This document shows, piece after piece, positions 25,281-41,528 of a stretch of 64,000 nt of DNA. A program made the translations under genes and the position numbers. The stretch's first letter is position 1, and each line of letters opens with the position of its first letter. A model generated the notes under the pieces. It was not told the origin of the DNA, ran no database searches, and worked only from the letters and a program-made list of their open reading frames with translations. Source of the stretch: Verrucomicrobiota bacterium (lineage in GTDB: Bacteria; Verrucomicrobiota; Verrucomicrobiia; Limisphaerales; Palsa-1400); contig JBEKYR010000001.1 of NCBI GenBank assembly GCA_049510745.1, positions 192,001 to 256,000 on the forward strand, read 5' to 3'.

Positions 25281-25817
25281 ATGGCTCATTTCTGGATCAC
25301 TAATGGCGCGGGTGAATGGGGAGTCCACTCGCTGGCCGGGGAGAGTTGCCTGGCTGTATGTGCTGAACACAACGTGCGCTTAACAGCCCCTGCGGATCAG
25401 CCAGGTCTTGCCGAAATCCGCATCCTGCCGCCGGACCCAACTGGTGGGTCGCCGTCATGGACATTGCTGGGGGGCCGGGAGGCATCCCTGCGCGTCAACG
25501 GTCAGCCGTTGGTGCTTGGCATCCGTGCCCTGCGCGACCGCGATGAGATTTCCCTTGCTGGCCATCGATGCTTCTTTTCCACGGAAGAACTCGCACGCGT
25601 TGTGCCGTTCCCAGGGCTGGCTCAACCCGCCTATTGCCCGCGCTGCAAACAAAAAGTGGAGCCTGGGGATCCCGCCGTCGCCTGCCCCCACTGCCGGGCG
25701 TGGCATCATCAGTCGGAAAAATTTCCCTGCTGGACCTACGGCCCCACTTGTGCGCTGTGCCAACTGCACTCCACCGCACTCGACGCGGGCTATGCGTGGA
25801 CGCCGGCAATGCTGTGA
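25281..25817 (+). CDS. Degenerate FHA-like domain + prokaryotic RING finger (putative E3)
   Basis: WTLL...VNGQPL...LRDRDEI FHA-like strands; CPRC...CPHCRAWHH...CW...CALC. Confidence 0.75.
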   Translation: MAHFWITNGAGEWGVHSLAGESCLAVCAEHNVRLTAPADQPGLAEIRILPPDPTGGSPSWTLLGGREASLRVNGQPLVLGIRALRDRDEISLAGHRCFFSTEELARVVPFPGLAQPAYCPRCKQKVEPGDPAVACPHCRAWHHQSEKFPCWTYGPTCALCQLHSTALDAGYAWTPAML

Positions 25818-25818
25818 C

Positions 25819-27003
25819 ATGAAACCCAATCGCCCAGCCGATTCGCGCCAAGCTTTGCAACCCCGTTGCCTGCATGGTGGGGGCAAGCACCTCGTCGTGT
25901 TGGGCGCGGGCGGAAACATCGGTTCGCATCTGGTTCCGCTGCTGGCGCGAATGCCCGGCGTCAAGCGGCTCACGCTCGTGGACTGCGATTGCTATGAGGA
26001 GAAGAATTTGCAGTCGCAGGACATCAGGCCATCGGACATAGGCCAGGCGAAAGCCCGCCTGCAGGCCCGCCGCGCCCGGCGCATCAATCCGAAGCTTGAA
26101 GTTGTGTCCATCGTTGACCGGCTTGAAAACGTCCCGCTCGGCTGCTTGCGAGGCGACATCATCCTCGCTTGTCTTGATTCCAAGGAAAGCCGGCGGTGCG
26201 CGAATGAAATCGCGTGGCGACTGGGCGTGCCCTGGATCGATGCCGGTGTGGAGCCGAGCCTGATGCTGGCGCGGGTGAACGTCTATCTGCCGGCGGCGGA
26301 TCAACCGTGTTTGGAGTGCGCGTGGAGTGAGCGCGACTACGCCGAATTGGCCACGATCCATCCATGCGACGGCGGTGGCTCTAAAAATCCGGCGACCAAC
26401 TCGCCGGCGTGCCTTGGCGCGCTGGCCGCCGCGTTGCAGGCCATTGAATGTCAGAGACTTCTCGCCGGACAATCGGCTTTGATCGGCCGGCAGGTGCTGA
26501 TCGAGGCGGCAACGCACCGGCATTTCGTCACTGCTTTTCGCCGCAACCCCAACTGCCGCTTTGACCATGCGACTTGGAAGATTTCCTCCTGGTGCCAGAC
26601 GCCGCGGAATCTCTCCATCGGCGCGATCCTCAAGCTGGCTCGCCGATCGGGTGCTTCGGCCGCGCTTGCGTTCGGCGGCCAGCCGCTCGTTAAAAGACTT
26701 GATTGTCCGGGGTGCGGCTTCACTCGGCGCGTTTTCCGTTTGCAGCGCCGTCTCAAGCACACCGATCGAGTCTGCGATCGTTGCGGCCGCGAAATGCTTT
26801 CCGCCGGTTTCCACATGAAAACCCGGTTGTCGAACGCGGATCTGGGTCCGGGTGACGCCAGTCGTTCGCTTGCGAGTCTTGGCTTGCAGACGGGCGACGT
26901 CATTTCCTTGGGCAACGGCGCGAGCGAAGAATTCTTCGAACTGCGCCCCGGACCCGGCCCGCACCCGCAAAGAGCGAAATCAATTCAACGGAGGGATTCA
27001 TGA
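25819..27003 (+). CDS. E1-like (ThiF/MoeB family) activating enzyme with C-terminal extension
   Basis: VLGAGGNIGS, VDCDCYEEKNLQSQ, GQAKA, CLDS, WIDAG, PCLEC, candidate catalytic Cys in IHPC; extra CPGC...CDRC. Confidence 0.9.
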   Translation: MKPNRPADSRQALQPRCLHGGGKHLVVLGAGGNIGSHLVPLLARMPGVKRLTLVDCDCYEEKNLQSQDIRPSDIGQAKARLQARRARRINPKLEVVSIVDRLENVPLGCLRGDIILACLDSKESRRCANEIAWRLGVPWIDAGVEPSLMLARVNVYLPAADQPCLECAWSERDYAELATIHPCDGGGSKNPATNSPACLGALAAALQAIECQRLLAGQSALIGRQVLIEAATHRHFVTAFRRNPNCRFDHATWKISSWCQTPRNLSIGAILKLARRSGASAALAFGGQPLVKRLDCPGCGFTRRVFRLQRRLKHTDRVCDRCGREMLSAGFHMKTRLSNADLGPGDASRSLASLGLQTGDVISLGNGASEEFFELRPGPGPHPQRAKSIQRRDS

Positions 27004-27536
27004 GCGACCAGATTTACGAAGCGTTCTTGCGCCGGCAGCTTGAAGAAGGCATGGCGCTGGCCAGCGGCAGCGACGTTCTGGACCTGACGCCGCTTCCAGG
27101 CGGAGAGCCGCCTTTCCGTTATATCGCGCATTTCGAGGGCCGCCGCGGCTTGGTGCGCGACGAGCGGGGCCAAATTGTTGAGTTTGAGAAGTTCATGGTT
27201 GGAATCTGGTTTCCCGAGGACTACCTGCGCCATGTGAACATCCCGCAGGTGCTTACCTACCTCGGCCCCCATCCCGAACCGTGGCATCCCAATATTCGTC
27301 CGCCGTTCTTGTGCGCGCACATTGAGCCAGGCACCGCGCTGGTTGATATACTTTACGCGTGCTACGAAATTTGGACGTGGAACCTGTTTGCGACGGGCGA
27401 CGAGGGCTTAAACCACGCGGCGTCGCAATGGTCGCGCAAACAAGATCGCTCCCGCTTTCCAATTGACCGGCGTCCGCTCCGGCGTCGCGCCGTGGAACTC
27501 GACGTGACCCCGGCTCCGGGAAAGGAAATCGCATGA
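27000..27536 (+). CDS. E2/UBC-like conjugating enzyme
   Basis: IWFPEDY...WHPNIRPPFLC (HPN + Cys)...LNHAASQW; ATGA overlap with E1. Confidence 0.85.
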   Translation: MSDQIYEAFLRRQLEEGMALASGSDVLDLTPLPGGEPPFRYIAHFEGRRGLVRDERGQIVEFEKFMVGIWFPEDYLRHVNIPQVLTYLGPHPEPWHPNIRPPFLCAHIEPGTALVDILYACYEIWTWNLFATGDEGLNHAASQWSRKQDRSRFPIDRRPLRRRAVELDVTPAPGKEIA

Positions 27537-28414
27537 ATCACGTCCACGACGAGGCCATTCGCACGGCCATTGCCGCCGTGACGACGAAACTGGCGCCAGT
27601 GGGCAACTCCGGCTGGCAATTCACTTTGCTCAATGGAGCACCGCACGTTGTGACTGCGAAAACCGACGGTGACTGGGTGTTATTCGAGACGGACTGCACC
27701 GGAGCAGCGCAATGTGCGGATTCTTTCTGGGAAGCCCTTGTGCGCAACGCCTCCTTCGACGGCCTGGCGAAAATCGTGCTGACGTACGATGGCAGCCCGC
27801 GACTGCGAGCTGAAATCCCCGTAACGGAAGACGTTGTCCTCACGACGCGGGTTCGGGAGGTGTGCCGCGGATTCGAAGCCGAATGGACGCACAAAGATGA
27901 ACATTCTCTTGCGGAAGCATCGCCTGAGGGGGCAGAGCCGATGGACCTCAAAAGCCTGTGCTCCGAGGCCGGCTGGCCTTTTGTGGAGCGCGGCGACCGG
28001 AAACTCGCCGTGGAACTTGAAGTTCCGGGCGGGTTCAGCCAGGCGCTCCTGATTCCGACGGAACACGGCGTTCGCATCACTTGCGAAGTCGCGACGCTCG
28101 ACGCCATCGCGGAGGAATGCCGGCAGGCAGTCAGTGGATTCCTGCTTGCCGCTTCTGGGCTTGTTCGCATGGGACGCGCGTCGGTGAACGCGATTGGAAC
28201 GTCGCCGGCGGCCCAGTTCGAGGTTGTCTTCGGAACCGCGCCAAGTCCGCCAGAAATTTCCAGTGCATTGGAATGCCTCTCCATCGCGTGCAGCCTCTGT
28301 GGCGAGGAAATCAAAACGCTGCAAGTGCCGGCCATCGCCGAACGCTACCTTGCCCTGCGCGGTTGGGATGCGGCTCCGGCGGCCCGGCGAAACGAAAGGA
28401 CAGTAACACCATGA
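27533..28414 (+). CDS. Hypothetical protein, probably two tandem YbjN/type III chaperone-like domains
   Basis: Two helix-strands-helix-strands-helix halves (EALVRNASF.GLAK..LRAEIP; SGFLLAASGLVRMGR..FE); ATGA overlaps at both ends. Confidence 0.55.
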   Translation: MNHVHDEAIRTAIAAVTTKLAPVGNSGWQFTLLNGAPHVVTAKTDGDWVLFETDCTGAAQCADSFWEALVRNASFDGLAKIVLTYDGSPRLRAEIPVTEDVVLTTRVREVCRGFEAEWTHKDEHSLAEASPEGAEPMDLKSLCSEAGWPFVERGDRKLAVELEVPGGFSQALLIPTEHGVRITCEVATLDAIAEECRQAVSGFLLAASGLVRMGRASVNAIGTSPAAQFEVVFGTAPSPPEISSALECLSIACSLCGEEIKTLQVPAIAERYLALRGWDAAPAARRNERTVTP

Positions 28415-28707
28415 TTGATGAACCCAAACTCGACATCCTCGCAAGCGATGTCACAGGCCAGACGGTGGTCAACGTCGGCATCGATGCCGGCGACCGGGAG
28501 ATGAGCGTGGGCGAGTTGCTCGACGGCCTGGTGCCGCGGATGAAACTGCCGCGGCTCGGGAACGGCGGGCGGCCGTTGACGTATCACGCCCGGCTGGAAC
28601 GGGAAGGAAGGCATCTGCATGCGACCGAGGTGGTGGGCGAAGCCCTGCAACCCAAGGATCGCATCATGATCCAGCCAACCATCGAAGCGGGAGGCAACCA
28701 CCGATAG
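28411..28707 (+). CDS. Ubiquitin-like beta-grasp protein, 98 aa, ending EAGG-NHR
   Basis: Beta-grasp pattern (SVGELL...GRHL....V...LQPKDRIMI); diglycine 3 residues from the C-terminus; lies between E2 and JAB. Confidence 0.82.
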   Translation: MIDEPKLDILASDVTGQTVVNVGIDAGDREMSVGELLDGLVPRMKLPRLGNGGRPLTYHARLEREGRHLHATEVVGEALQPKDRIMIQPTIEAGGNHR

Positions 28708-28728
28708 CCCGCCAGACCGAGAGGAACC

Positions 28729-29835
28729 ATGAACACTCGACAGCCATACAAATTCGTAATGGAACTGCACAAACGAGATGGCTCTCCACTCGGCCAGGTC
28801 CCGGTGGCGGCCGATTGGGAACCGGCTTGGGAGGCGGTACGCTTCCTGGCCATGCGCCGGTTTCCGCTCGCCGCCCTCGGGGCCGATGCGGTGGCCGAAC
28901 TCCGGCCAGCCTGGCATGAGGAACTCGGTCAACCTTACATCAGCGCAGTGGACGTGGCACTCCAAGTTCCTGGGGCCGGCGAGCTCTCGTGCCGCGTGCC
29001 GAAAAACTTTTTCAAATCGCTTGCCAGTGATGCCAGCGTCCCTCTCGTAGAAAAGGGATCACTCCAGGCGGGCGAGCTTTTCAATTATCTCGTCACCGCG
29101 TTTCCCAGTCCGCAAGAAACGCGTGGTCGCACCCAACCGCGGGCGCGATTCGAGATCGAGGAAGTGCCGACCCCGCTGCCGCTCAAATCCTCGTTGCTGG
29201 CGAAATTTAACGCGCGGTCCGTCGCAGCCGGCGAGCAAAACGAGGAGGACATTCCAGTGTTCATTCCACAGAACGTTCTTGCGGAAACAGATCAATTGAC
29301 ACGCGAGGCGGCGGGGGTGGAAACCGCGTCCGTCCTTATCGGGCATATCCATCGCGACCCGTTGGGCGGAGAGTTGTTTCTCGAAGTGACGGCGCAGATT
29401 CCCGCCCGAAACTCGCAGGCCACCGCCACGAAGGTGAGCTTCGGGCCCGAGACGTGGAACGCAGTTCATGGCGCGCTCGCGTTGAGGAGCGAAAATGAAC
29501 AATGGGTGGGTTGGTTTCATTCGCACCCTGCCGCATCGTGGTGCAATTCCAAATGCTCACCCGAGAGCCGCGCGAAATGTCCGCTACAACGCTCCTTCTT
29601 TAGCGCCGATGACTGCGATGTGCATCGGACCGTTTTTTCCAAGGCGTTTCATATCGCCCTGCTGGTCACGAACACGGACGCCGGGTTACAGCATGCGCTG
29701 TTCTCGTGGCGCAACGGCGTGATTGTGCAACGTGGATTTCACATTCTTGGAAACGAAGGAGAACAAAACCCGGCCGTCGCGCCTGTCGCGGCGGCCACCA
29801 TTGGAGATGCCGAAAATGAAAAAACCTGCCCTTGA
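28729..29835 (+). CDS. JAB/MPN+ metalloprotease with N-terminal extra domain
   Basis: ETASVLIG (Glu), VGWFHSHP, FFSADD; GAGAGG SD. Confidence 0.9.
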   Translation: MNTRQPYKFVMELHKRDGSPLGQVPVAADWEPAWEAVRFLAMRRFPLAALGADAVAELRPAWHEELGQPYISAVDVALQVPGAGELSCRVPKNFFKSLASDASVPLVEKGSLQAGELFNYLVTAFPSPQETRGRTQPRARFEIEEVPTPLPLKSSLLAKFNARSVAAGEQNEEDIPVFIPQNVLAETDQLTREAAGVETASVLIGHIHRDPLGGELFLEVTAQIPARNSQATATKVSFGPETWNAVHGALALRSENEQWVGWFHSHPAASWCNSKCSPESRAKCPLQRSFFSADDCDVHRTVFSKAFHIALLVTNTDAGLQHALFSWRNGVIVQRGFHILGNEGEQNPAVAPVAAATIGDAENEKTCP

Positions 29836-31483
29836 CGAGACTGTTGAGCTAGTGCGCGCCATGCTTTCGGTCGAGGGCCCCCAAAGCCTTGACGGAACTA
29901 TCGCGAGCCTGCAACAGGTCCGCAGCCTGTCTGCGGAAACTGCCGCCGTCGTGGATCGGACGCTGGTGGAAACCGTCGCCGAGTATCGCCGCGCCCTGAA
30001 GCGTGCGCAGCGTGATATTCATCAGTGCCGCGAATTGCTCGAACAACTGTCCGCGCCTCCCCTGCATCCCGCCGTTTTCCATCGAGTGATCAACGCCACC
30101 GGCGCACTCAAGGCCCTGGTCCAGGCGGGAAACGCCCGGCGGGTCGTTTCTCCTGGAGAAGAAATCAATCTTACGAGGTTCGTTCGCGGCGACGAGGTTT
30201 TCCTCAATAACGAACAGAATCTCATCATTGCCGCCTCGCCCGATGGCCCTCCAAGCTGTGGCGAAACCGCGGCGTTCGAGCGTTGTCTGCCCGATGGACG
30301 GCTGGTGCTGCGCCATCACGACGATCATATCGTGGTGGACGTCTGCGGAAAACTGGCGAACACCAAGTTCAAAGCCGGGGACGCCGTGCGTTTCGACCGT
30401 ACTATTTGGATGGCTTATGAGAAAATCGAGCTTGAAACCTCCCGGCGCTACTTGCTGGAGGAAGTGCCGAACCTTCCGCTGGACTCGGTAGGCGGCCAAG
30501 GCGCAAATCTGGAGAGCCTTTTGTCCGTGCTCACGATGATTCTAGTCAACCCGAAACTCGCCGCCACCTACGGCCTGAATGGTCGCAGCTCCATCCTCAT
30601 GGCCGGGCCGCCGGGTTGCGGGAAAACCCTGATGGCCCGCGTCGCCGCGAGCGAAGTCTCACGGCTTACTGGGAAGAAATGCCGTCTTGCCGTGGTGAAA
30701 CCGTCCGAATGGGAATCGCCCTGGGTTGGCCAGACACAGGAAAACATCCGCCAATGCTTCCAAGCGCTTCGCGAGGTGGGCGAGGATGGTTACGCCGTGC
30801 TGTTTATGGACGAAATTGAATCCGTCGGACGGATACGCGGGGGCGCGGTTTCACATCATTCGGATAAGTTTCTCGCAGCTCTGCTGGCCGAACTGGACGG
30901 ATTTACCGACCGCAAGAACGTGGCCATCATCTGCGCCACAAATCGGAAAGATTTGCTTGACGCCGCGCTCTACGAGCGATTGAGCGATTTGGAAATCAAC
31001 GTGGGCCGGCCTGAAATGAAGGGTGCGCGCGCCATCTTCCAGATCCACCTTCCGGAGAGCGTCCCGTTCCATCCGAACGGCGAGCTGGCAATGCCCACGC
31101 GCGAGGCATTGATCGACCACGCCGTTTCCCAGTTCTACAGCCCGAACGCCGGCAACGAGCTTTGCACGCTCCGGTTTCGCGACGGCAAGCAACGGATCAT
31201 CGTCGCGCGCGAATTGGCCAGCGGACGCCTGTTTGAGAATGTGTGCCGCAGTGCGCGCCGTAGCGCATTCCTGCGCGAGGTCCGCGGCGGCGTCGCGGGG
31301 GTGCAATTGATGGACATGCAGGAAGCGGTCAGCCAGACGCTGGAACGAATGCGCACGACTTTGACCATTCGTAACGCCCAGGCGTATCTGCCCGATTTGC
31401 CTCAGGACGTGGATGTGGTCAGCGTCGAACCCATTGTCCGCAGGGTGAAGCAACCCCACAAGTATCTCAATCAACCGGCCTGA
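29816..31483 (+). CDS. arc: ARC/Mpa-like proteasomal AAA ATPase
   Basis: Coiled coil-LSAPP, beta-rich interdomain, LLEEVP..VGG, GPPGCGKT, VLFMDEIES, LLAELDG, ATNRKDLLD, ASGRLFENV. Confidence 0.85.
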   Translation: MKKPALDETVELVRAMLSVEGPQSLDGTIASLQQVRSLSAETAAVVDRTLVETVAEYRRALKRAQRDIHQCRELLEQLSAPPLHPAVFHRVINATGALKALVQAGNARRVVSPGEEINLTRFVRGDEVFLNNEQNLIIAASPDGPPSCGETAAFERCLPDGRLVLRHHDDHIVVDVCGKLANTKFKAGDAVRFDRTIWMAYEKIELETSRRYLLEEVPNLPLDSVGGQGANLESLLSVLTMILVNPKLAATYGLNGRSSILMAGPPGCGKTLMARVAASEVSRLTGKKCRLAVVKPSEWESPWVGQTQENIRQCFQALREVGEDGYAVLFMDEIESVGRIRGGAVSHHSDKFLAALLAELDGFTDRKNVAIICATNRKDLLDAALYERLSDLEINVGRPEMKGARAIFQIHLPESVPFHPNGELAMPTREALIDHAVSQFYSPNAGNELCTLRFRDGKQRIIVARELASGRLFENVCRSARRSAFLREVRGGVAGVQLMDMQEAVSQTLERMRTTLTIRNAQAYLPDLPQDVDVVSVEPIVRRVKQPHKYLNQPA

Positions 31484-31487
31484 CCCA

Positions 31488-33251
31488 GTGAATCCAATGC
31501 CCACATCCACCAGCCAAGCCGGTTCACACAACGGCGAGTCACCACGCCCCCGCCTGCCGAAGCTCTGCGGCGCTGATTTCGAGCTGGGCAACCTCGTTCT
31601 CGGAATCGACCTGCCAAAGGGCACGGGTGCGCTTGCTTCTCATTTGCTCTTGCGGGAATTCGACGGTCTGCCTTTGGCGCGCAAAGGCCAGTCCATCTGT
31701 TACTGTCAAGCCTGCACGGCGCGGCGGCGGGCGTTGGAGGATGGTTACACCACGGCCGAGTTCCTGGGCGAAGAGTGTTCCATGACCAAGTACGGCTCGG
31801 CCTACAATGCGCAGGACTGGGCGCGCAAATTCCTCAGCAACGGCGGCTGCGCTTACATTGATCTCGATCATCTCGAATTGTGCATCCCGGAGGTTCTGAG
31901 CGCGCGTGACCACGTTGCGGCGTCGCACGCGATGTTGCGCAAGGCGCGCGCGGCCCTGCAAATGGCCAACGCGCGATTGCCGGAAGGAAAGAAAATTGTC
32001 GCGCTGGCGAACAACTCCGACGGGCAGGGCCATTCTTACGGCAGCCACCTGAATTTTCTGGTCACGCGCCGCGCTTGGAGCGATTTGTTCGAGCGGCGGT
32101 TGCAACATCTGCTCTTTCTTGCCGCCTACCAGGCCTCCAGCATCGTGTTTACAGGGCAGGGGAAAATCGGCGCCGAAAACAACCGTCCGCCGGTGCAGTA
32201 CCAGATTTCGCAGCGGGCGGATTTCTTCGAGGTGTTAATGGGGCCGCAGACGACGTGGAACCGCCCCCTGATAAACAGTCGCGATGAGGCTTTATGTGGT
32301 CCGTGGTATGGAGCCAGCGCGAGTCCAGACTCGGTAGAAAAGGCACGGTTGCACGTCATTTTCTATGACCAAACTCTTTGCCACACCGCCAGCCTGCTCA
32401 AGGTCGGGGTGATGCAGATTATTCTCGCTATGATCGAGGCCGGAAGCGTTCGCACCAGCATCGTGCTTGATGATCCAGTTGAAGCGGTTTGGCAGTGGAG
32501 CCACGACCCGACACTGCATTGCCGCGTGCGGCTGGCGGACGGCCGCAACCTCACCGCCGTCGAGTTGCAGATGCTGTTTTGGGAGGAGGCGCAGCGTTTT
32601 GTCGCCAGCGGCGGCTGCACCGACATCGTGCCGGACGCGCCACACATCCTCGAACTCTGGTCAGACACACTGGGCGAACTGCGCGCGCGCGACTATGCCG
32701 CACTGGCGCGCCGGCTGGATTGGGTCCTCAAACTGCAGATCCTCCAGCGCGCGCGACAGCAACGGCCCAATCTCACCTGGGCCTCGGCGGAGCTCAAACA
32801 TTTGGACTTCATGTACGGCAGCCTCGAAGACGGACTGTACTGGGACCTCGAAAAAAACGGCCTGGTTAACGCTCTTGTCACCAGCGAAGAGATCGAACAC
32901 TTCCGCAATGAACCGCCGGAAAACACACGCGCGTGGACCCGCGCGAGGTTGCTGCGCCTGGCCGAACCGCAGCAGATCGAGCGTGTGGACTGGGACAGCA
33001 TCACCTTTTCGCTCAAGGGCGACCATTACTGGCCGCGCGAAAGCACGGTCAATCTGACCAATCCGCTTGGCTTTACGCGAACTGCCTGCCAACGGGTCTT
33101 TCAGCTTTCGACTACCCTGGAGGAGGCGTCGGCCATGTTAAGCGCCAATCAGGACGGAACGGCAGCCATTTCGCCAACAAACGCAGCCGTGCAGGAACCA
33201 ATCCAAATTGAAGGAGATCACCATGAATCAACGCGAACGCCCCCAGCATGA
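31488..33251 (+). CDS. dop: Dop-like Pup deamidase/depupylase (PafA/Dop family)
   Basis: GADFELG, long loop, FLSNGGCAYIDLDH, NNSDGQGHSYGSH, SQRADFFE, INSRDE, RLHVI, LDWVLK, PPENTRA, DWDS. Confidence 0.8.
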   Translation: MNPMPTSTSQAGSHNGESPRPRLPKLCGADFELGNLVLGIDLPKGTGALASHLLLREFDGLPLARKGQSICYCQACTARRRALEDGYTTAEFLGEECSMTKYGSAYNAQDWARKFLSNGGCAYIDLDHLELCIPEVLSARDHVAASHAMLRKARAALQMANARLPEGKKIVALANNSDGQGHSYGSHLNFLVTRRAWSDLFERRLQHLLFLAAYQASSIVFTGQGKIGAENNRPPVQYQISQRADFFEVLMGPQTTWNRPLINSRDEALCGPWYGASASPDSVEKARLHVIFYDQTLCHTASLLKVGVMQIILAMIEAGSVRTSIVLDDPVEAVWQWSHDPTLHCRVRLADGRNLTAVELQMLFWEEAQRFVASGGCTDIVPDAPHILELWSDTLGELRARDYAALARRLDWVLKLQILQRARQQRPNLTWASAELKHLDFMYGSLEDGLYWDLEKNGLVNALVTSEEIEHFRNEPPENTRAWTRARLLRLAEPQQIERVDWDSITFSLKGDHYWPRESTVNLTNPLGFTRTACQRVFQLSTTLEEASAMLSANQDGTAAISPTNAAVQEPIQIEGDHHESTRTPPA

Positions 33252-33426
33252 AAATCCATTCTCCGCCGCCCCCGGACCAGCAGGCGGTCCGGATGGAGCC
33301 AACTTAAACGCCATTCGTCAAACTGCCGCCGGCATGCTGGCCGCCGCCGATGAAGCAATCAGCCGCGTGCTTTCTGGCGACAGCCAGGCTTTCAACGCCG
33401 CCGCGCGGCAGGAGGGCGGACAGTAA
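33223..33426 (+). CDS. pup: Pup-like prokaryotic modifier, 67 aa, ending GGQ
   Basis: Low-complexity N-half; ADEAISRVLSGDSQAFNAAARQEGGQ parallels the Pup C-terminus (DEIDDVLEENAEDFVRAYVQKGGQ); AAGGAG SD; lies between two PafA/Dop homologs. Confidence 0.85.
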   Translation: MNQRERPQHENPFSAAPGPAGGPDGANLNAIRQTAAGMLAAADEAISRVLSGDSQAFNAAARQEGGQ

Positions 33427-33446
33427 TATCGCGAGGAGGCACGGGT

Positions 33447-35864
33447 ATGGCGCAACGATTGTTCGGCATGGAAATCGAGTACGGCTGCGCGGCGCGCAGC
33501 CGCGATGCCGCGCGGACAGTTCGCAACCGTGACTGGGTGGGCGAGTTCATGAGAATCGCCTGCGAACGCCTGCCGCACCTGCCTTCGATGGAAGGCGGGG
33601 GAATTTTCCTCGAGAATGGAGCGCGGTTTTACGTGGATTGCTCGCATCCTGAAATGACCACGCCCGAGTGTTCCAATCCCTGGGACGTGGTCCGCTACAT
33701 GCAGGCTGGCGAAAAGATGTTGACTGCCGTCGCCGAGGAAATGCAGCGGCGGCAGCCCTCATTGGCCGAAGTGATGATCTTTAAAACCAACGTGGATCAT
33801 AGCGGCAGCGGCGCGACCTGGGGTTGCCACACCTCCTTTATGCATCTCGGAAACCCGGAGAAGTTCCCAGATCAAATCATTCCACATTTGGTCAGCCGGA
33901 TTGTTTATTCCGGCGCTGGCGGATTGGAGTTGGTGGATGGGCGTTTTCGTTTCACGCTCTCGCCGCGCGTCAGGTTTCTCGAACGTGAAGTTTCGCACAA
34001 CAGCACCAGCGAGCGTGGCATTTTCCATACGAAGGACGAAACGCTGGCCAACGAGGGATGTCATCGCCTGCACATTATCTGCGGGGAGAGCCTCTGCTCG
34101 GAAACCGCGCTCTGGCTGAACATGGGAGCGACGGCCGTGATCGTGGCGCTCATCGAGGCGGGCTTGCGCCCTGGTCAAGCCGTGCGTTTGCAGGATCCTT
34201 TGGGTGCCATGCGGCGCTTCTCCCTTGACCCCACCTGCCGGGCCGTGGCGCAGACCCTTGGCGGAAAGAAATTGAGCGCCGTGCAGATTCAGCGCCACTA
34301 CTTGGAAATTGCCCAGACGCACCTCGGCGCTCCCTTCATGCCGCCCTGGACGGACCAGGTTTGCATCCAATGGCGCGCAATGCTGGATCGTCTGGAAAAC
34401 GGGGCTCCCGGCTCCGTGGCCGCAACGCTGGATTGGGCCATGAAGTTGGGCCTGTTCCTGGATCGCGCAGAGCGGAGGGGGCTAGGCCCCCAACACTGGC
34501 ATCCCATCGGTCCGGCAGTGCTACAGGAACTCGATGGCGATGAACCCGGCCTCTGCGATGAAGCGCCAGCCTCCAAGAAACCCGCTTCCGCTTCTGCGGC
34601 GGTCTGCAAGGTTCACCAGGAACTCTGCGAGATAGACACCCGGTTCGCCCAACTCGGGGACAACGGCATCTTCGCCGCTTTGAGCCGGGCGGGAGTGTTG
34701 GCCCATCACTTGGCCGGGGTGGACAACATTGAGCACGCCCTGGCCAATCCACCGGCCATCGGCCGCGCGCGGTTGCGGGGTCTGTGCGTGCAGCGGTTCA
34801 AGGGCCAGAACCACCGCTACTCCTGTAGCTGGCGCAACGTCGTGGACCGCGAGAAAAACCTGTTGCTCGACCTTTCCGAGCCGTTTATCTCCGAGGAAAA
34901 ATGGCTGCCTGTGCCCGCGAGTTTTCGAGACCCGGACACCTCCATCCAAGGCCACTTGCGCCGGATATTAAGCGAGGCTCGCATGCGCCACGACCGCGGC
35001 GACCATGAGTCCGCCGCGGCGATTCTGCGCCAGATGGAAGGTTTCCAATCCGCCCTCGAATTGGAAAATCACTCGGAATATCTGCGATTGCGAGCTTGGA
35101 TCCAGAGTCGCAGAGGCTTCCTCGACAGCATACCCGCTCTCGATGCTTTGGCGCAGTCGGAGTTGATGACTCTCTCCCTCGCCAACTCATACGTGTGCGC
35201 CTACCGCTACCAGGGACTGATGCCGCCGCCGGCGATTGAGGCCTGGATCCGGCGCGGACGCGAATTCCTTTCTCCAAGACCCGATCGTTCTGACGGGGCC
35301 GCGTTGCCCTTCCTTGGACATTGGGGCTACTTCCTGCTGCGCAGCGGGCAGCCCTATGACGCGCTCCGCACGTTACATGATGCGTGCCAGCCCATCCGGC
35401 GGGAAAGCGCCAATCCCGCCGCCATCTCCCGGGCACTGGCGGACTACGGCGACGCCTGTCGCGCGGTTGGGCAACACTTCGAAGCCAAAGCCTTGCTCGA
35501 CGAAGCCCAAGCCATGCAGACGGAGCATCAACTCGAAGGGGACTTGTCGGACTTTGCCCTGACTCATCGCGCCAAACTTGAGACCCATTCTGAGCGCGCG
35601 TTGGAACTGCTTGCCCAGGCCAGGACCATTCAAACGCGCCTGGGAAACGTCATGGGGGAAACACGAACGCTGCTGTTGGAAGCCCGGTTCCTGCGCCATC
35701 GCACACTCACCGTGCAACATAAAGCACGCCTCCATGAACTGCGCGGAATGCGCCCGGCGCTTTCCCAGTGCCGGCTCTTTGGTAAAATCCTCGACAAATG
35801 GGAAGCCTGGACCAGCGGCGGCGCTGACCCGGACGGTGGAGGGGATACATTCTGGTGGCTGTGA
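33447..35864 (+). CDS. pafA: PafA-like Pup ligase fused to a C-terminal helical-repeat (TPR-like) region
   Basis: RLFGMEIEYG, FLENGARFYVDCSHPE, GCH, TKDE, RLHIICG, LDWAMK, RARLRG; then ~300 aa of helical repeats. Confidence 0.82.
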   Translation: MAQRLFGMEIEYGCAARSRDAARTVRNRDWVGEFMRIACERLPHLPSMEGGGIFLENGARFYVDCSHPEMTTPECSNPWDVVRYMQAGEKMLTAVAEEMQRRQPSLAEVMIFKTNVDHSGSGATWGCHTSFMHLGNPEKFPDQIIPHLVSRIVYSGAGGLELVDGRFRFTLSPRVRFLEREVSHNSTSERGIFHTKDETLANEGCHRLHIICGESLCSETALWLNMGATAVIVALIEAGLRPGQAVRLQDPLGAMRRFSLDPTCRAVAQTLGGKKLSAVQIQRHYLEIAQTHLGAPFMPPWTDQVCIQWRAMLDRLENGAPGSVAATLDWAMKLGLFLDRAERRGLGPQHWHPIGPAVLQELDGDEPGLCDEAPASKKPASASAAVCKVHQELCEIDTRFAQLGDNGIFAALSRAGVLAHHLAGVDNIEHALANPPAIGRARLRGLCVQRFKGQNHRYSCSWRNVVDREKNLLLDLSEPFISEEKWLPVPASFRDPDTSIQGHLRRILSEARMRHDRGDHESAAAILRQMEGFQSALELENHSEYLRLRAWIQSRRGFLDSIPALDALAQSELMTLSLANSYVCAYRYQGLMPPPAIEAWIRRGREFLSPRPDRSDGAALPFLGHWGYFLLRSGQPYDALRTLHDACQPIRRESANPAAISRALADYGDACRAVGQHFEAKALLDEAQAMQTEHQLEGDLSDFALTHRAKLETHSERALELLAQARTIQTRLGNVMGETRTLLLEARFLRHRTLTVQHKARLHELRGMRPALSQCRLFGKILDKWEAWTSGGADPDGGGDTFWWL

Positions 35865-36101: not shown

Positions 36102-39100
36102 ATGAAACGTCTTCTTGCCGCTGGCGCCGCCCTATTGCTGCTGGGCTGCGATCTCCATCATAATCGCTCTGAACACGTCGAACTGATTCTCAATCCTTCC
36201 CCGGCTGTTCCCGCCACAACATTTGAACTGCGGTTTGACCAACCGATGGTGGGACCGGACAGAATCGGCCGTCCGGCGGAACCGTCGCCTCTGGTCATCA
36301 AGCCGGCCCTGGGCGGCGTCTTCACCTGGCTCAGCACGCGGAGTGGCACTTTTGTGCCGTCCGATCCCCTAGCGCTGGACCACCGATACAAACTATCACT
36401 GCGGTCCGGCTTGATGGGCGCGGACGGACGCCCCTCTCCGGCCGTCTTGCACGACCGCGTGGAAACGCCGCGGTTCTCGATGGTCGATTCGGCTCCCCGG
36501 CGGAACCAGGCGGATTTGAATTCGGAACAAATCGTGACGCTCGTTTTCAACGCGCCCGTGCGCGCCGCAGATTTGGCGCCGTATCTCGAATTCCGCGACG
36601 CCGGGGGTCAGCACCGGGCGGCTGAAATCCGGCAGGGCACCAACGAAGATATGCCTTGGGACTATCGGCGTTTGGATTTGCCGGCCAATCTCGTTTCCAA
36701 CTTGGTCTTGGCCGCGCCGCAAAAACCATTGCCGGTTGGCCAAGATTGGCGGTTGGTCCTTCGACCCGGTCTCCCCGCCGTCGAGAAGGGATTGCGCTTG
36801 CGCGCCCGCGACGAAATCCAATTGGGCGACGTCCATCCGTTTGTTTTCAAGGAAGCCATCGCGCATCATTTTATCGAAGGCGGCGCTTCAATTGTTCTCC
36901 AGTTTTCAAAGCCGGTTGCGCTGTCCTTGGGCGACAAATGGAACCGTTGGATTCACCTGGAGCCGATCGCATCCAATATCACGGCGGAGGCGGACGGCAA
37001 ATGTCTGACTTTGCAGGGCGATTTTCGAGGTGGAACCTGCTACCAGCTTGCCGTGAAAACCGGATTGCCTGCCGAGGAATCCTTCATCTTGGACGATGCC
37101 GCGTTGACCAACATCATCATGCCCGGCATTCCGCCGCGGCTCTATTTTTCGGCCTTTTCCGCGGATCAACAGGCGGTGGGACGGCGCCAGTTCCCCCTGC
37201 TGGCCGTGAACGTGCCGACCATCCGTCTTCGTGCCAAATTGCTGGAACCTGACGCGGCCATTCACGCTTTGCGCGGCTACGGCAGCTACTTCCGCTCCTG
37301 GCCTGATTATGACACCCACGGCGAGCGTTACCAGCGTGTCGATTATAATTTAATCGCCGGTCGAACGATCTTCGATGAAGAATTGGCCGGCACGCCACAA
37401 TCGGACATGGCCACCAACGTGATGCTGGACTGGGATCGGGTTTTGGGCGGGCGCAAAACCGGGGTCATTTTTGTCGAGGCCGAGCGCGCGGGCGAGCGTT
37501 CTGAATCCAGCCCGCGCCTGGGCACGCAGGCCCTGATGCAATTAACCGATCTCGGCGTGGCCTGGAAATCCGCCGCCGGGGAGTTGGATGCCTTTGTCTT
37601 TTCGCAAAGCACCGGAGAGCCTGCCACCGGCGCGGCCGTCCGATTGTTCGACGACGAGAACCAAGTGCTGCAAGAAGCGCTCACCGACGATCGAGGACTG
37701 GCGCATCTGCAATGCCCGAGCAACGCTCAATGGCTGGGGGCTGCGCTCGGACAGGACTTCCACGCCTTGAAAATCGAGGACCACGGCATCCCGCTTTACG
37801 GGTTCGATCTTCCGCAGTCCTGGGGCGGTGGAACCGCGAGCGCCCGGCCTGTGTTGATTTTCAGTGACCGCCAGTTTTACCGTCCGAATGAAACGCTCCA
37901 TCTCAAGGCGCTGGCGCGAGAATGGACGCGTGATGGTCTGGCTATTCCGTCCGAACTGGCCGGAACGCTGGAATGTTGTGACGCGCGGGGAAAATCGTTC
38001 TTTTCGAACAATGTCCACTTCAGCGGACGCGGTGCCTGCTCGGTCGATGTGCCCCTGCCGGCGGGGCCGTGCGGCGATTATGTCGCGCGCTTGCATCTGG
38101 GAGATTCGGGCGATTCGGTTTACGAGCACGCCTTCCAAGTCCAGGAACTCAAGCCGAACCCATTTGAAGTGACCGTGCAAGCCAAGCCCGAGTATGCAGC
38201 TGGTGACAAAGTGGAGATTCCCATATCGGCCCGTTATTACTTTGGCCAGCCGTTGTCCGCGGCGCGGGTGAAATGGACGTTGGAAGTGGATGAGAGCGGT
38301 TTCAAGCCTGCGGGCTTCGACTCATTCAGTTTTCTTCGAGCTTCGCCTGGATCGCATCTGGCCTTTTCCGGCGAGACGCGCATGTCCAACTCTCCCGTCT
38401 GCGTGATAAAGCCGGTAATGCCGTCGAATAATGCAGCGCCCGGCCCGCGCCGGATGTCGCTTCTAGTCGAGACGACCGACCTTGACCAGCAAACCGTTTC
38501 CAGCAGTGCGGAGTTCACCTGTCACAGCTCGGACTTTTACCTGGGCTTGTGCCAGACTGACTCGGTTTGGACCGCCGGCCAGGAATCGCCTCTGCAAATC
38601 GTCGCCGTCGGGGCCGACGGTCAGCCGTGGCCGCAACCGGTGGCCGCGCACTTGCAACTCCAGCGCGTGGATTGGGAGCCGGTGCGCGTGCAAGGCGCCG
38701 GCAGCACCCTCCGCTATCTCCCTCAATCCGCTTCTTCCAACGTGCTCGATCGCGACATTGAAATCCACGGGCTGACCAACCAGCTCCTGGCCGCCGCCGA
38801 GCCGGGACAATACGCGCTGGAGATTTCTGCCACGGACACACATGGACGCGCGGTGGCCACATCCCTTGAATTCTCCGTCTCCGCGCCCGGCAGCCTGGCT
38901 TGGAATTACCGCGACGAAGTCCGCATGGAACTCCAACCCGACCGTTCCGAATACGCACCCGGAGAAACGGCGCGAGTGCTGGTCAAGGCGCCTTTCAGCG
39001 GCATGGCGTGGGTCACGGTCGAACGCGACAAAGTGCTCCGCTCCTTCTCCGCGCAGTTGGACGGCAACGCGCCCGCGATTGAAATCCCCATCGGGCGTGG

Positions 39101-41528
39101 CGATTTGCCCAATGTTTTTGTCTCGGTCCTTCTGGCGCGCGGTTCCGAAAACTGCCCGAGGGAAGTCAAGGAGCCGGAATACCGCATCGGTTACTGCCAA
39201 CTGCCTGTGCGCAACCCGGCCAGCCGGCTCGCCGTGTCGGTCGTTTGTGCGGCCACGAATTATCTCCCCGCCCAACCAGTGGAGATTACGGTTAATGTCA
39301 ATTATATTTCAAACGCTCCCGTGGCCGGCGCGGAAGTGACCCTGTACGCAGTGGACGAGGGCATCCTCAGCCTGGGCGACCCTGGACTGCCCGATCCGGG
39401 CGCGATCTTTTATGCATCGCGTCCCTTGGAGGTCAGTTCCGCCATTTCCCTGGCGAACCTGCTGCCGGAGGATCTCGAACCGCGCCGGTTGGCCAACAAA
39501 GGTTACTTGGGCGGCGGTGGCGGCCGTTGCAATGTGCGCAAGAACTTCCTCGCCTGCGCGTTTTGGAACGCGACTTTGGTCACCGGCCCGCAAGGGTCGG
39601 TCACCGCCAGATTTCTTGCGCCCGATAGTATGACTCGCTATCGGGTCATGGCGGTCGCGCATTTGGACGACCGTTTCGGCTCTGGACAATCGGCCTTTGA
39701 AGTCAGCAAGCCGTTGCTGATTGAACCGGCCCTGCCGCAGTTCGCCCATGTCGGTGATCAACTCATCGCGCGCGCCGTGATTCACAACCAAAGCCACCAC
39801 TCAGGCGACGTTGTTGTGAAATTGGAACTGGATGACAAGGCGCAGGCCAAGGGCACAGAGAAACAGATTCAAATTGCCGCCGACGGCTCGAAGGTGGCCG
39901 AATTTCCCGTCACCTTCGCCGCCGCCGGGCCGGCGAAATGGATTTGGCGCGCTTGGTTTGCCGATGCGCCGCGCGAATTCACCGACGCCACCGAATGTTC
40001 GCTGGAGGTCGGTTACGTTTCGCCACTCTTGCATGAAACGTTCTGCGATACGGTCGAGGGATTCTCGACCAACTTGTTGGCCAAGGTGAACCCGCAGTTT
40101 CTGGCCGGAACCGGCACCGTGACCATCCGCGTCTCCAACACGCGCCTGAGCGAATTGGGCGAGGCCGTCTCGCAATTGCTGCATTATCCCTACGGCTGCG
40201 TCGAACAAACCGGTTCCAGTATGCTGCCGTGGATTGTATTGAGCGACGCGCCCGCGCTGCGTTCCGTCATGGGATGCCGTTCCAACGAGATCGCGCGCGC
40301 GATCAATTACGGCATTGAGCGGCTCTTTACGATGCAAACGCCCGGCGGCGGCTTGGGATACTGGCCGCACGCGCGCGAACCGATGCTCTGGGCCAGCGCG
40401 TATGGGGCCATGGTGTTGTCACTGGCCCAACAGCGCGGCTGGACGCTGCCCGAACCGGAATTCGACAATCTGCTTTCTGGTCTGAGCGCGCAACTGCGTG
40501 AACCGGGCGGCGGCGCAAGTTCGCTTTCCGACACCTGCCTGGCCCTTTACGCCCTGGCCCTGGCCGGGCGGGCAGAACCGGGTTACCACGAGAAAATCTT
40601 CTCCCGGCGCGGCGAGCTTTCGGCCGAGGACCGGGCGCTGTTGGCGCTGGCCATTCTGCAAGCCAACGGCCCGCCGAAAATGGCCAGGGAATTATTGACA
40701 ACAAACCAAACTTCCCGCCGCGCGGAGCCAGACGACTTCGATTGCCTGTCGCGCGAACAGGCCATCCTCCTCCTGGCCTGGATTCGATTGCAACCCGAAA
40801 GCCGGGAAGTGACATCCGGATTCGACGCGCTCATGCGCGAACAGCGCGAAGCCCATTGGGGCACGACCCAGGGCGACGCCTGGGCGCTGCTGGCTTTGAC
40901 GGAATACTCGCGCCGCGTCGAGGGCTCTCCCCAGTCCGCCGCCGGAGAACTGCGCTGGCGCGGCAAGGCCATTCCCTTCCAGCTTGACGCACGGACGTCT
41001 ACATTCGACAAGACATTCGATTTGACAGGAAATGCGGATTCGTCTCCTGCCATCCTGAATTCCTCGTTGCACCGCCTCTACGCCTCCGCCGCCTTCGAAA
41101 TCCGTCCGCCCGGCCCCGTGCAACCCCGACAAGACGAAGGCTTCGGACTACAGCGGAGCTATCAGCGTTTGGATGGGTATAACCAGCCTTGCTCGGGCGC
41201 ACTGACCGTCGGCGACCGCGTTTTGGTCACGCTCGAATTGTCGGCGCGGGAGGCGGCCCGATACATTGTAGTTGATGATTCGTTGCCGGCTATTCTGGAA
41301 CCAATTGGGGTCGGCGAGGAGCGGAACCGGATGTGGAGTTTTCATGAATTCCGCAAAGATCGCGCCTTGTTCTTCGCCAACGATTTGCCTGCCGGAAACT
41401 ACACGGTGCGCTATTGCGCTCGCGTGCGCGCGGCGGGCCAGGTCGGCGCTCCTTCGGGCAAGGTGGAGGAAATGTATCATCCGCAACGTTTCGGATTGAC
41501 CGGGACGCAAACCCTCGAGGGAAAATGA
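36102..41528 (+). CDS. Bacterial alpha-2-macroglobulin lipoprotein
   Basis: Lipobox LLLGC, DRQFYRPNE (MG2), AVDEGIL, PDSMTRYR, intact thioester motif YPYGCVEQT, EEMYHP. Confidence 0.93.
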   Translation: MKRLLAAGAALLLLGCDLHHNRSEHVELILNPSPAVPATTFELRFDQPMVGPDRIGRPAEPSPLVIKPALGGVFTWLSTRSGTFVPSDPLALDHRYKLSLRSGLMGADGRPSPAVLHDRVETPRFSMVDSAPRRNQADLNSEQIVTLVFNAPVRAADLAPYLEFRDAGGQHRAAEIRQGTNEDMPWDYRRLDLPANLVSNLVLAAPQKPLPVGQDWRLVLRPGLPAVEKGLRLRARDEIQLGDVHPFVFKEAIAHHFIEGGASIVLQFSKPVALSLGDKWNRWIHLEPIASNITAEADGKCLTLQGDFRGGTCYQLAVKTGLPAEESFILDDAALTNIIMPGIPPRLYFSAFSADQQAVGRRQFPLLAVNVPTIRLRAKLLEPDAAIHALRGYGSYFRSWPDYDTHGERYQRVDYNLIAGRTIFDEELAGTPQSDMATNVMLDWDRVLGGRKTGVIFVEAERAGERSESSPRLGTQALMQLTDLGVAWKSAAGELDAFVFSQSTGEPATGAAVRLFDDENQVLQEALTDDRGLAHLQCPSNAQWLGAALGQDFHALKIEDHGIPLYGFDLPQSWGGGTASARPVLIFSDRQFYRPNETLHLKALAREWTRDGLAIPSELAGTLECCDARGKSFFSNNVHFSGRGACSVDVPLPAGPCGDYVARLHLGDSGDSVYEHAFQVQELKPNPFEVTVQAKPEYAAGDKVEIPISARYYFGQPLSAARVKWTLEVDESGFKPAGFDSFSFLRASPGSHLAFSGETRMSNSPVCVIKPVMPSNNAAPGPRRMSLLVETTDLDQQTVSSSAEFTCHSSDFYLGLCQTDSVWTAGQESPLQIVAVGADGQPWPQPVAAHLQLQRVDWEPVRVQGAGSTLRYLPQSASSNVLDRDIEIHGLTNQLLAAAEPGQYALEISATDTHGRAVATSLEFSVSAPGSLAWNYRDEVRMELQPDRSEYAPGETARVLVKAPFSGMAWVTVERDKVLRSFSAQLDGNAPAIEIPIGRGDLPNVFVSVLLARGSENCPREVKEPEYRIGYCQLPVRNPASRLAVSVVCAATNYLPAQPVEITVNVNYISNAPVAGAEVTLYAVDEGILSLGDPGLPDPGAIFYASRPLEVSSAISLANLLPEDLEPRRLANKGYLGGGGGRCNVRKNFLACAFWNATLVTGPQGSVTARFLAPDSMTRYRVMAVAHLDDRFGSGQSAFEVSKPLLIEPALPQFAHVGDQLIARAVIHNQSHHSGDVVVKLELDDKAQAKGTEKQIQIAADGSKVAEFPVTFAAAGPAKWIWRAWFADAPREFTDATECSLEVGYVSPLLHETFCDTVEGFSTNLLAKVNPQFLAGTGTVTIRVSNTRLSELGEAVSQLLHYPYGCVEQTGSSMLPWIVLSDAPALRSVMGCRSNEIARAINYGIERLFTMQTPGGGLGYWPHAREPMLWASAYGAMVLSLAQQRGWTLPEPEFDNLLSGLSAQLREPGGGASSLSDTCLALYALALAGRAEPGYHEKIFSRRGELSAEDRALLALAILQANGPPKMARELLTTNQTSRRAEPDDFDCLSREQAILLLAWIRLQPESREVTSGFDALMREQREAHWGTTQGDAWALLALTEYSRRVEGSPQSAAGELRWRGKAIPFQLDARTSTFDKTFDLTGNADSSPAILNSSLHRLYASAAFEIRPPGPVQPRQDEGFGLQRSYQRLDGYNQPCSGALTVGDRVLVTLELSAREAARYIVVDDSLPAILEPIGVGEERNRMWSFHEFRKDRALFFANDLPAGNYTVRYCARVRAAGQVGAPSGKVEEMYHPQRFGLTGTQTLEGK

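Follow-up and report, generated by a model that had tools for sequence, protein, structure and literature searches.

Can an enzyme of the Pup ligase family carry its own target receptor? The question is raised by a gene on contig JBEKYR010000001.1 of a Verrucomicrobiota bacterium (Limisphaerales, Palsa-1400; assembly GCA_049510745.1), positions 192,001 to 256,000 of which form the 64,000-nucleotide stretch analyzed here and called the window. The gene (window 33447-35864, + strand) encodes an 805-residue enzyme in which a Pup ligase-family core is followed by some 300 residues of helical repeats. To our knowledge, pupylation is usually described without the substrate-receptor layer of ubiquitination, one ligase, PafA, tagging many proteins. 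A sequence-only reading of this DNA had described a Pup ligase fused to a tetratricopeptide repeat (TPR)-like region, and had proposed that the region is a built-in substrate receptor or sensor for targeted pupylation, for example of a phage protein or of a protein marked with a ubiquitin-like modifier. The description of the gene proved correct in every checkable particular; the proposed function is weighed below.

The best explanation, which we regard as evenly poised between right and wrong, is that the helical region is a docking receptor for a peptide or protein, fused to the likely ligase of a nine-gene cassette (an enzyme lacking the Dop-loop) and making its tagging selective. The enzyme of one subclade would have gained a 300-residue TPR solenoid at its C-terminus, and the solenoid would hold a particular partner beside the active site. 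The docked partner would most likely be the tagging substrate itself or an adaptor that brings it, and tagging would become selective, much like ubiquitination by a ligase that is aimed through the TPR of APPBP2 or of CHIP.

The gene and its catalytic core

The features of the gene, all on the + strand, are as follows.

33447..35864, +: whole gene, 805-residue Pup_ligase-family enzyme with a C-terminal TPR-type domain (open reading frame (ORF), PF03136 at 287.7 bits, AlphaFold2 model)
33447..34913, +: catalytic core, residues 1-489, carboxylate-amine ligase fold (Dop/PafA fold and PDB sequence matches)
34482..34622, +: variable low-confidence insertion within the core, residues 346-392 (model confidence, pairwise identity)
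34944..35861, +: TPR-type solenoid, residues 500-805, about 17 predicted helices (AlphaFold2, VIA-align, Foldseek, TPR_12)
35844..35861, +: conserved C-terminal tail D-x-F-W-W-L, in the family D-x-[FY]-W-x-[LVI]-COOH (conservation in 110 sequences, model confidence)

The ORF of 805 codons is uninterrupted, has codon 500 at position 34944, and closes with the protein terminus GGGDTFWWL. Its match to PF03136 (Pup_ligase) scores 287.7 bits against a Pfam gathering cut-off of 25, covering residues 4-350 and a second stretch. The core had been said to end near residue 490, and this is borne out by BLAST similarity to orthologous cores, which stops at residue 486-489, and by the VIA-align superposition of model residues 1-488 on solved PafA (4bjr_A; Z 39.4, root-mean-square deviation (rmsd) 3.1, 431 residues aligned). 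The corresponding values for solved Dop (9cku_G) are Z 45.9, rmsd 2.1, and 374 residues aligned. The N-terminal motif GMEIEYG occupies residues 7-13 and the catalytic Asp lies in YVDCSHPEMTTPE, with YVDCSHPE at residues 62-69; both the GxExE and the catalytic-Asp motifs align to those of Dop and PafA. Residues E9, E11, D64, E69, R207, and H209 are invariant or near-invariant in alignments of 19 and 71 rows.

Canonical PafA was held to be an enzyme of about 450 residues without an extension, in agreement with an NCBIfam PafA model of 457 positions and solved chains of 493 and 517 residues including tags, none of which the query matches beyond residue ~481. The truly variable part of the 805-residue enzyme is the insertion at residues 346-392, with mean pairwise identities of 0.35 in a close set and 0.215 in a broad set of sequences, compared to 0.73 and 0.385 for the core. 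Residues 364-378, within this insertion, form the only stretch with a predicted local distance difference test (pLDDT) value below 50 in the 71-row AlphaFold2 model.

The C-terminal region is a TPR-type solenoid

AlphaFold2 models were built from two alignments. With 19 close sequences, residues 500-805 reached a pLDDT of ~90 while the core was poorly folded; the model from 71 diverse full-length rows has a mean pLDDT of 92.5 over the entire chain, a predicted template modeling score (pTM) of 0.72, and pLDDT values of 94-96 for the last ten residues. The helical repeats running from the core to TFWWL, noticed in the letters alone, thus appear in the predictions as about 17 helices at pLDDT ~90 or more. 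The region is not unstructured, because residues 500-805 fold confidently as a solenoid.

The better, 71-row model was compared by VIA-align with 48,161 representative chains, and many TPR chains match it over residues 494-800 at Z 14-26. The best solved match among these is APPBP2 (8jal_A; Z 25.6, rmsd 3.1, 286 residues aligned, model 500-797), which in that entry is the substrate receptor of the cullin-RING ligase CRL2 with a bound RxxGP degron. It is followed by a subunit of the anaphase-promoting complex (APC/C; 20.1), peptide-bound Rap (18.8), and NprR (18.5), and at lower Z by MalT domain III (17.3, model 470-797), AimR (17.2), and PEX5 (13.6). In this comparison of a model, only APPBP2 stands clearly apart among the TPR fold matches. 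In a Foldseek search with the first model, LGN/Pins, Rap/NprR, and TPR subunits of APC/C were the matches to its C-terminal part (E 2e-4 to 3e-3), and a look-up of the domain in the ESM Atlas returned generic TPR look-alikes only.

Sequence profiles point the same way. TPR_12 matches the 805-residue enzyme at residues 625-692 (E 0.0064; 17.1-20.9 bits, under the cut-off of 30.1) and 13 of 14 members of the domain family at E<=1, the best at 2.4e-9. On the evidence of the models, residues 500-805 are a solenoid of the TPR class; the solved structures closest to it in shape are binders of short peptides.

A conserved domain family with an invariant position

With residues 490-805 alone as the query, a word-indexed search gave 25 clusters at E<=1e-3 with identities of 40-80%, each of them carrying PF03136; 18 are 794-829 residues long and the remaining seven lie on short contigs. 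An exhaustive search with the 316-residue region against 1.84 billion representatives returned 282 at E<=1e-3, 188 at E<=1e-10, and 76 at E<=1e-30. From the representatives listed, 109 of 148 have a near-complete domain and, with the window's own, make up a set of 110 sequences: 66 enzymes of 700-900 residues, 25 N-terminally truncated sequences, three longer than 1200 residues, and 16 that are domain-only, the query itself being one. Another domain-only sequence (P0034) lies on a contig of 956,817 nt and so is not simply a contig-end fragment. A fusion arising by misassembly was considered and rejected, the fused frame being found in 18 of the 25 close clusters, in the 66 representatives of 700-900 residues, and at seven other genome loci.

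The domain is always the extreme C-terminus: none of the 110 sequences has more than five residues after it. Positions conserved at 86-99% (R555, R587, W600, R662, R672, K710, R740, R747, W785, W788, D800, W803) are mostly basic and aromatic, and three in the tail stand at 95% (D800), 82% (F802), and 94% (W803). The last four residues follow [FY]-W-x-[LVI], most often as FWGL (32 sequences), FWGV (22), or YWGL (10), the FWWL of the window occurring once. A proteasome-docking tail of the HbYX type, a motif with Tyr as its penultimate residue, was set aside, given that the penultimate residue here is mostly Gly and that the cassette has no proteasome genes.

Variability among homologs was a further check on the region, and the domain is not hypervariable. 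Its mean pairwise identity is 0.62 in the close and 0.31 in the broad set, so that it evolves only a little faster than the core (0.73 and 0.385). A hypervariable "arms-race" sensor was rejected on these figures.

The same domain in TIR-NACHT proteins

Among the matches listed, three TIR-NACHT proteins of ~1380 residues (P0093, P0157, P0160) end in the same domain (E 1.9e-33 to 4.5e-20). They carry TIR_2 and NPHP3_N/NACHT-type STAND modules ahead of it, and their versions keep nearly all of the conserved domain positions. Proteins of the P0157 type lie on contigs of up to 95,531 nt, and P0160 on one of 58,935 nt.

This reuse bears on a different explanation, namely that the solenoid is a sensor or autoinhibitory module in the manner of STAND proteins and MalT. 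A signal (a small molecule or peptide) would then switch the enzyme, leaving its substrate range broad and its activity conditional. The placement of the domain at the C-terminal sensor position of the three TIR-NACHT representatives, its conserved residues nearly all kept, speaks for such a role, as do matches of TPR_MalT (PF17874) to five of 14 domain-family members (best E 1.5e-6), the window protein not among them, and the resemblance to MalT domain III. A pTM of 0.72 for a two-domain chain likewise hints at fixed packing of the solenoid on the core. However, a degron receptor is the top fold match and exceeds MalT by 8 Z units, and sensing and substrate docking are mutually compatible. 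As an account of what the solenoid does, we consider conditional switching rather unlikely. The earlier proposal, "substrate receptor or sensor", is partly supported. It fits a module that is structured and conserved, whose nearest solved folds are peptide and degron receptors and a STAND sensor domain, that occupies the sensor position in TIR-NACHT proteins, and that is an accessory of one subclade. Nothing found here points to phage.

A nine-gene cassette

The gene is the last of a tightly packed nine-gene operon on the + strand (window 25408-35864), which runs in the order E1, E2-like, unknown, ubiquitin-like protein (Ubl), JAB, Mpa-like AAA, Dop-like, Pup-like, and the 805-residue enzyme. 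The eight genes ahead of it are listed here.

25408..27003, +: E1-like ThiF-family adenylating enzyme (PF00899 at 96.6 bits; weak PADLOC E1-E2 matches)
27000..27536, +: E2-like protein, 178 residues, motif WHPNIRPPFLC (conserved in the cassette; without a Pfam match)
27533..28414, +: conserved 293-residue protein of unknown family (without a Pfam match; orthologs in most loci)
28411..28707, +: Ubl, 98 residues, ending IEAGG-NHR (translation and 15-row alignment; without a Pfam match)
28729..29835, +: JAB/MPN peptidase (PF01398 at 23.3 bits, cut-off 22.5; conserved in the cassette)
29723..31483, +: Mpa/ARC-like AAA ATPase, the true start probably being a later ATG (PF00004 and proteasomal ATPase OB C-terminal domain)
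31488..33251, +: Dop-like paralog, 587 residues, with an insertion of Dop-loop size (PF03136 at 313 bits; TIGR03688 272.1 versus TIGR03686 216.6 bits)
33223..33426, +: Pup-like modifier, 67 residues from ATG, ending RQEGGQ (ORF; conserved between the two ligase-family genes)

The label "E2-like" rests on HPN followed by Cys, which we take to be an E2 mark. In the 15-row alignment, the Ubl ends in an invariant A-G ([ID]AG) followed by 0-4 variable residues, or in one row by a 19-residue tail, and stops directly after AG in three rows; this ending suggests processing by the neighboring JAB peptidase in most lineages. The Mpa/ARC-like ATPase scores 246 bits with TIGR03689, under the cut-off of that model. 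In the cassette ATPases, a shared motif H-R-Y-[LVIR] is separated from the C-terminus by 3-5 residues (window 31409-31483: HKYLNQPA) and is not terminal; canonical Mpa ends in its docking motif. The Pup-like tag has no NCBIfam match. Its alignment ends RQQGG[QE] and its conserved middle is acidic.

A scan of one genome per species located 36 related loci in Verrucomicrobiota, Planctomycetota, Acidobacteriota, and one metagenome-assembled genome (MAG) of Myxococcota, so that with the window 37 loci were compared. The same gene order recurs across these four phyla in nearly every locus with enough flank (tBLASTn and ORF-level BLAST), and in all six extension-bearing loci that have upstream sequence. 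The sole conserved flank of the extension-bearing loci is one or two small upstream ORFs in Planctomycetia. Immediately downstream of the cassette in the window (36102-43765, + strand) lie genes for an 1808-residue bacterial alpha-2-macroglobulin and a PBP1C-type penicillin-binding protein with transglycosylase, transpeptidase, and BiPBP_C domains. In the other extension-bearing loci the two are not conserved beside the cassette.

There are no proteasome genes within the cassette. The same genome carries a canonical set on contig 5 (L062 6313-9461, - strand), in the order UBact (NF033388, 82.8 bits), prcB, prcA, and a PafA-type gene, while an Mpa-type ATPase (422.7 bits) and Dop (435.2 bits) are encoded on contig 30 (L063 3207-6747, + strand). 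The cassette thus adds a separate tagging system to the canonical one. Two further ORFs with Pfam Proteasome matches, of 330 residues on contig 24 (L002 1174-2166, - strand) and 286 residues on contig 12 (L003 862-1722, - strand), match over their N-terminal ~190-200 residues, have Lys/Glu-rich C-terminal tails, and are unlinked to either Pup system.

The extension is an accessory of one subclade

The domain profile matches eight of the 37 loci (the window, L021-L024, L027, L029, and L030). Elsewhere, most cassette copies of the enzyme stop 9-60 residues past the core and three stop 108-134 residues past it; unrelated extensions of 180-211 residues occur in Acidobacteriaceae orphan paralogs, the Myxococcota locus, and a Vicinamibacterales MAG. 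All eight extension-bearing rows fall within a 13-row Planctomycetota/Verrucomicrobiota group of a quick tree. As drawn, this tree requires three changes for the extension, and its well-supported branches are compatible with one origin. The extension is an accessory of one Planctomycetota/Verrucomicrobiota subclade.

It is also rare. In the phylum of the window, six of 401 genomes match the domain at E<=1e-3, of which that of the window and one other (3.1e-11) are better than marginal; in Planctomycetota, three of 401 genomes match at E<=1e-10, the center genome counted. Each of five extension-bearing genomes holds a single copy, within the cassette.

Four loci deserve separate mention. In a Planctomycetia MAG (L027 9995-12525) the TPR domain is spread over two overlapping frames, in ORFs of 795 and 159 residues, reflecting either a frameshift or an assembly error. 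A MAG labeled uncultured Bifidobacteriaceae (L022) encodes an 805-residue ortholog, 61% identical to that of the window in the core and 53% in the C-terminal domain. This ortholog nests among verrucomicrobial rows in the tree, and its taxonomic label is probably a binning error. Distant ligase-family genes with open frames of 765 and 769 residues, in L012 (G413, of the family of the window genome) and L006 (G215), respectively, are similar to the second half of the TPR domain only (query ~150-316, E ~1e-12) and, judging from this alignment, may represent a shorter or older form of the extension.

The cassette setting raises the alternative that the solenoid is an assembly scaffold, binding a fixed partner from the operon or self-associating, and thereby physically coupling the two tagging pathways. 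Its partner could be the Ubl (or a protein tagged with it), the Dop-like paralog, the AAA unfoldase, or the Pup-like tag, bound through its free N-terminal half. Such a role would fit a domain that is conserved at a rate near that of the core and is not hypervariable, a cassette that moves as a self-contained unit without conserved flanks, a single domain copy per genome that lies in the cassette (five extension-bearing genomes), and the pairing of a basic conserved domain surface with an acidic tag middle. Yet the same partners occur without the extension in 29 of 37 loci, no length or motif difference in a cassette protein tracks the extension, and the TIR-NACHT proteins carry the domain outside any demonstrated cassette context. 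Complex prediction for the TPR domain with the Ubl and Pup-like tag alignments gave uncontrolled run scores of 0.42, 0.00, and 0.00 against a mark of 0.32, which speak neither for nor against binding. Coupling within the cassette is in our estimate an unlikely sole function, and neither it nor a sensor or autoinhibitory role is exclusive of a receptor role.

Ligase or hydrolase, and the case against a selective ligase

The proposal of a receptor fused to a ligase has two parts, and the observations that weigh against it concern both. On the enzyme side, several comparisons place the core nearer to Dop than to PafA. In NCBIfam, the 805-residue enzyme scores 223.6 bits with the Dop model (TIGR03688) and 208.4 with the PafA model (TIGR03686), and the PDB sequence search gives 172 bits for solved Dop and 113 for solved PafA chains. 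The fold of the core is likewise closer to Dop (Z 45.9) than to PafA (Z 39.4). The motif YVDCSHPEMTTPE aligns ungapped with VDHAHPEYSTPE and YVDHAHPEYSTPE of Dop, while a gap is needed against LDVGSHPEYATAE and YLDVGSHPEYATAE of PafA; the surroundings of the catalytic Asp have the spacing of Dop and its Pro, without the PafA-type extra residue after the Asp or the Ala that takes the place of Pro. Table 1 of PMC7947786 lists nine alpha-loop positions separating Dop from PafA, and at these the enzyme is Dop-type at three and PafA-type at one. In the quick tree of 25 rows it forms its own, fourth clade and is not joined to canonical PafA.

On the side of the solenoid, identity to APPBP2 is only 8%, and high Z scores are common for helical repeats, values of ~13-14 being reachable by arrangement alone. 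Peptide binding by the solenoid, and the identity of such a peptide, are what we infer, and the pTM of 0.72 would also fit a regulatory packing of the modeled solenoid on the core. The extension is absent from 29 of the 37 loci, and since most cassettes work without it, it is not needed for the basic reaction. Outside the cassette, the flanks of the extension-bearing loci hold no conserved candidate substrate gene.

The likeness to Dop invites a reversed assignment, in which the 805-residue enzyme is a targeted tag remover or deamidase (a Dop-type hydrolase), the upstream paralog is the ligase, and the TPR selects conjugates for untagging. Proximity of the core to Dop in sequence and fold, together with the Dop spacing and Pro around the catalytic Asp, would be expected of such an enzyme. 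The Dop-loop argues otherwise. This loop is conserved in Dop and absent from PafA according to PMC7947786. The 805-residue enzyme lacks it, having 44 residues between GxExE and NGxRxYxD, as in PafA, whereas the upstream paralog has 83 residues between GADFELG and NGGCAYID, an insertion of Dop-loop size. Likeness to Dop does not separate the two paralogs, because the Dop model outscores the PafA model for each of them. Both paralogs are below the equivalog cut-offs (for the 805-residue enzyme, 208.4 versus 551.3 bits for PafA and 223.6 versus 492.3 for Dop). In the tree, which carries a long-branch warning, four long-stemmed clades (the Dop-like and the PafA-like enzymes of the cassette, and canonical Dop and PafA) radiate without a clear order. 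We judge the reversed assignment very improbable.

On sequence grounds, the 805-residue enzyme is a distinct member of the Pup_ligase family and most likely the ligase for the Pup-like tag of the cassette, an activity that we assign on the Dop-loop criterion and on the need of the system for a ligase. As most of the Pup-like tags end in Q, a deamidase is needed as well as a ligase. The name "Pup ligase" given at the outset thus holds for the family (PF03136 and fold) and, with a core nearer to Dop, should be taken as provisional for the activity.

NLR-like proteins, defense, and phage

The occurrence of the domain in TIR-NACHT proteins also suggests a broader setting. A scan of metagenomes with P0093 found five loci (L057-L061); on these contigs of 2.1-6.6 kb there are no matches to the nine cassette proteins or to the C-terminal domain.

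In six Acidobacteriaceae MAGs (L037, L039, L041, L044, L045, L051), a second ligase-family paralog, an orphan whose ~190-residue extension is unrelated, is encoded within a few kb of the cassette. TIR-NB-ARC-TPR or DUF4062/TIR-NACHT-TPR genes adjoin the orphan paralog in five of 11 Acidobacteriaceae loci (L037, L039, L044, L045, L051); these five are close kin, and the other six have housekeeping or regulatory neighbors. Genes with RyR domains are found near the orphan paralog in L039 and L041, and one for a sigma-54 activator in L039. The TPR domain was not found in five such Acidobacteriaceae genomes, a search with the single protein giving no match and the profile one marginal TPR match (E 2.5e-4). 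An orphan paralog beside NLR-like genes is a hint at a conflict-system setting.

Searches against PADLOC-DB 2.0.0 found no family at E<=0.01 for the 805-residue protein, the 587-residue protein, or the tag, and generic matches only for other cassette members (the AAA to IetA/TRIP13, the E1 to E1-E2, and a weak one for JAB). Viral contigs hold no relative of the 805-residue enzyme and none of P0160. With neither a PADLOC match nor a viral-contig relative, and with a domain that is not hypervariable, nothing found here links the enzyme to the suggested phage protein target.

A more far-reaching possibility is that the cassette is an immune or conflict system. A TPR sensor common to it and the TIR-NACHT proteins would read a degron-like peptide on an invader or on damaged self, the enzyme would Pup-tag the bearer, and the Mpa-like AAA would unfold or extract it. 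We consider this quite improbable. If true, an E3-like target receptor would be known as a built-in part of a Pup-family enzyme for the first time, and pupylation chemistry would for the first time be tied to NLR-type sensing.

Comparison with known systems

Within the portions of the sources available, a literature search (including PMC2588565, PMC7947786, PMC11354881, PMC5654768, and 10.1101/2024.11.21.623966) turned up neither a Pup-family enzyme that carries a TPR domain nor an account of the composite cassette. Iyer et al. 2008 (PMC2588565), as far as the text at hand extends, describe Pup systems in verrucomicrobia and planctomycetes and a membrane-inserted ligase variant, with no TPR fusion. 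The architecture itself is already on record in databases, uncommented, for instance as PF03136 plus PF13424 or in entries named "tetratricopeptide repeat protein". If the receptor proposal is true, pupylation chemistry has also evolved built-in targeting. The enzyme offers a handle on an uncharacterized cassette joining ubiquitin-like and Pup-like pathways around one unfoldase, and any ligand of its TPR domain would be a strong candidate for the target of the cassette.

The closest known enzymes are PafA and Dop (PF03136; 4bjr, 4b0t, 4b0r, 9cku), which share the catalytic fold (Z 39-46) and the conserved active-site residues. The context is also similar, with the 805-residue gene adjoining a small tag ending in GGQ, a paralog, and an Mpa-like AAA ATPase. 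However, the canonical enzymes lack the 300-residue TPR domain, and in the core described here Dop-type residues occur together with a PafA-like lack of the Dop-loop. In contrast to the Pup-proteasome system, the cassette has no proteasome genes, the UBact-prcB-prcA-PafA and Mpa-Dop sets of this genome lying on other contigs.

Ubiquitin ligases provide the nearest functional parallels. APPBP2 (8jal) is a TPR solenoid presenting a short degron peptide to a tag ligase, a likeness in fold with no indication of common descent; it serves a cullin-RING ligase as a subunit of its own, whereas the solenoid described here shares one chain with an ATP-dependent enzyme of the glutamine-synthetase fold. 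CHIP/STUB1 combines a TPR docking module and a U-box ubiquitin ligase in one chain. Compared to the 805-residue enzyme, CHIP has the reverse domain order and an unrelated ligase chemistry, and it is absent from the fold-search results.

Among bacterial proteins, the RRNPP receptors (Rap, NprR, AimR) are solenoids of ~300 residues that enclose short peptides (Z 17-19, Foldseek E 5e-4 to 3e-3). These are quorum-sensing regulators of Firmicutes and their phages, with no common sequence family and no such enzymatic partner domain. STAND NTPases (MalT domain III, 1hz4; TIR-NACHT/NB-ARC-TPR proteins) similarly have a C-terminal TPR, and a homologous domain ends the three TIR-NACHT proteins; in contrast to these sensors, the domain here is mounted on a tagging enzyme, not on an NTPase switch, and has its own C-terminal [FY]-W-x-[LVI] tail.

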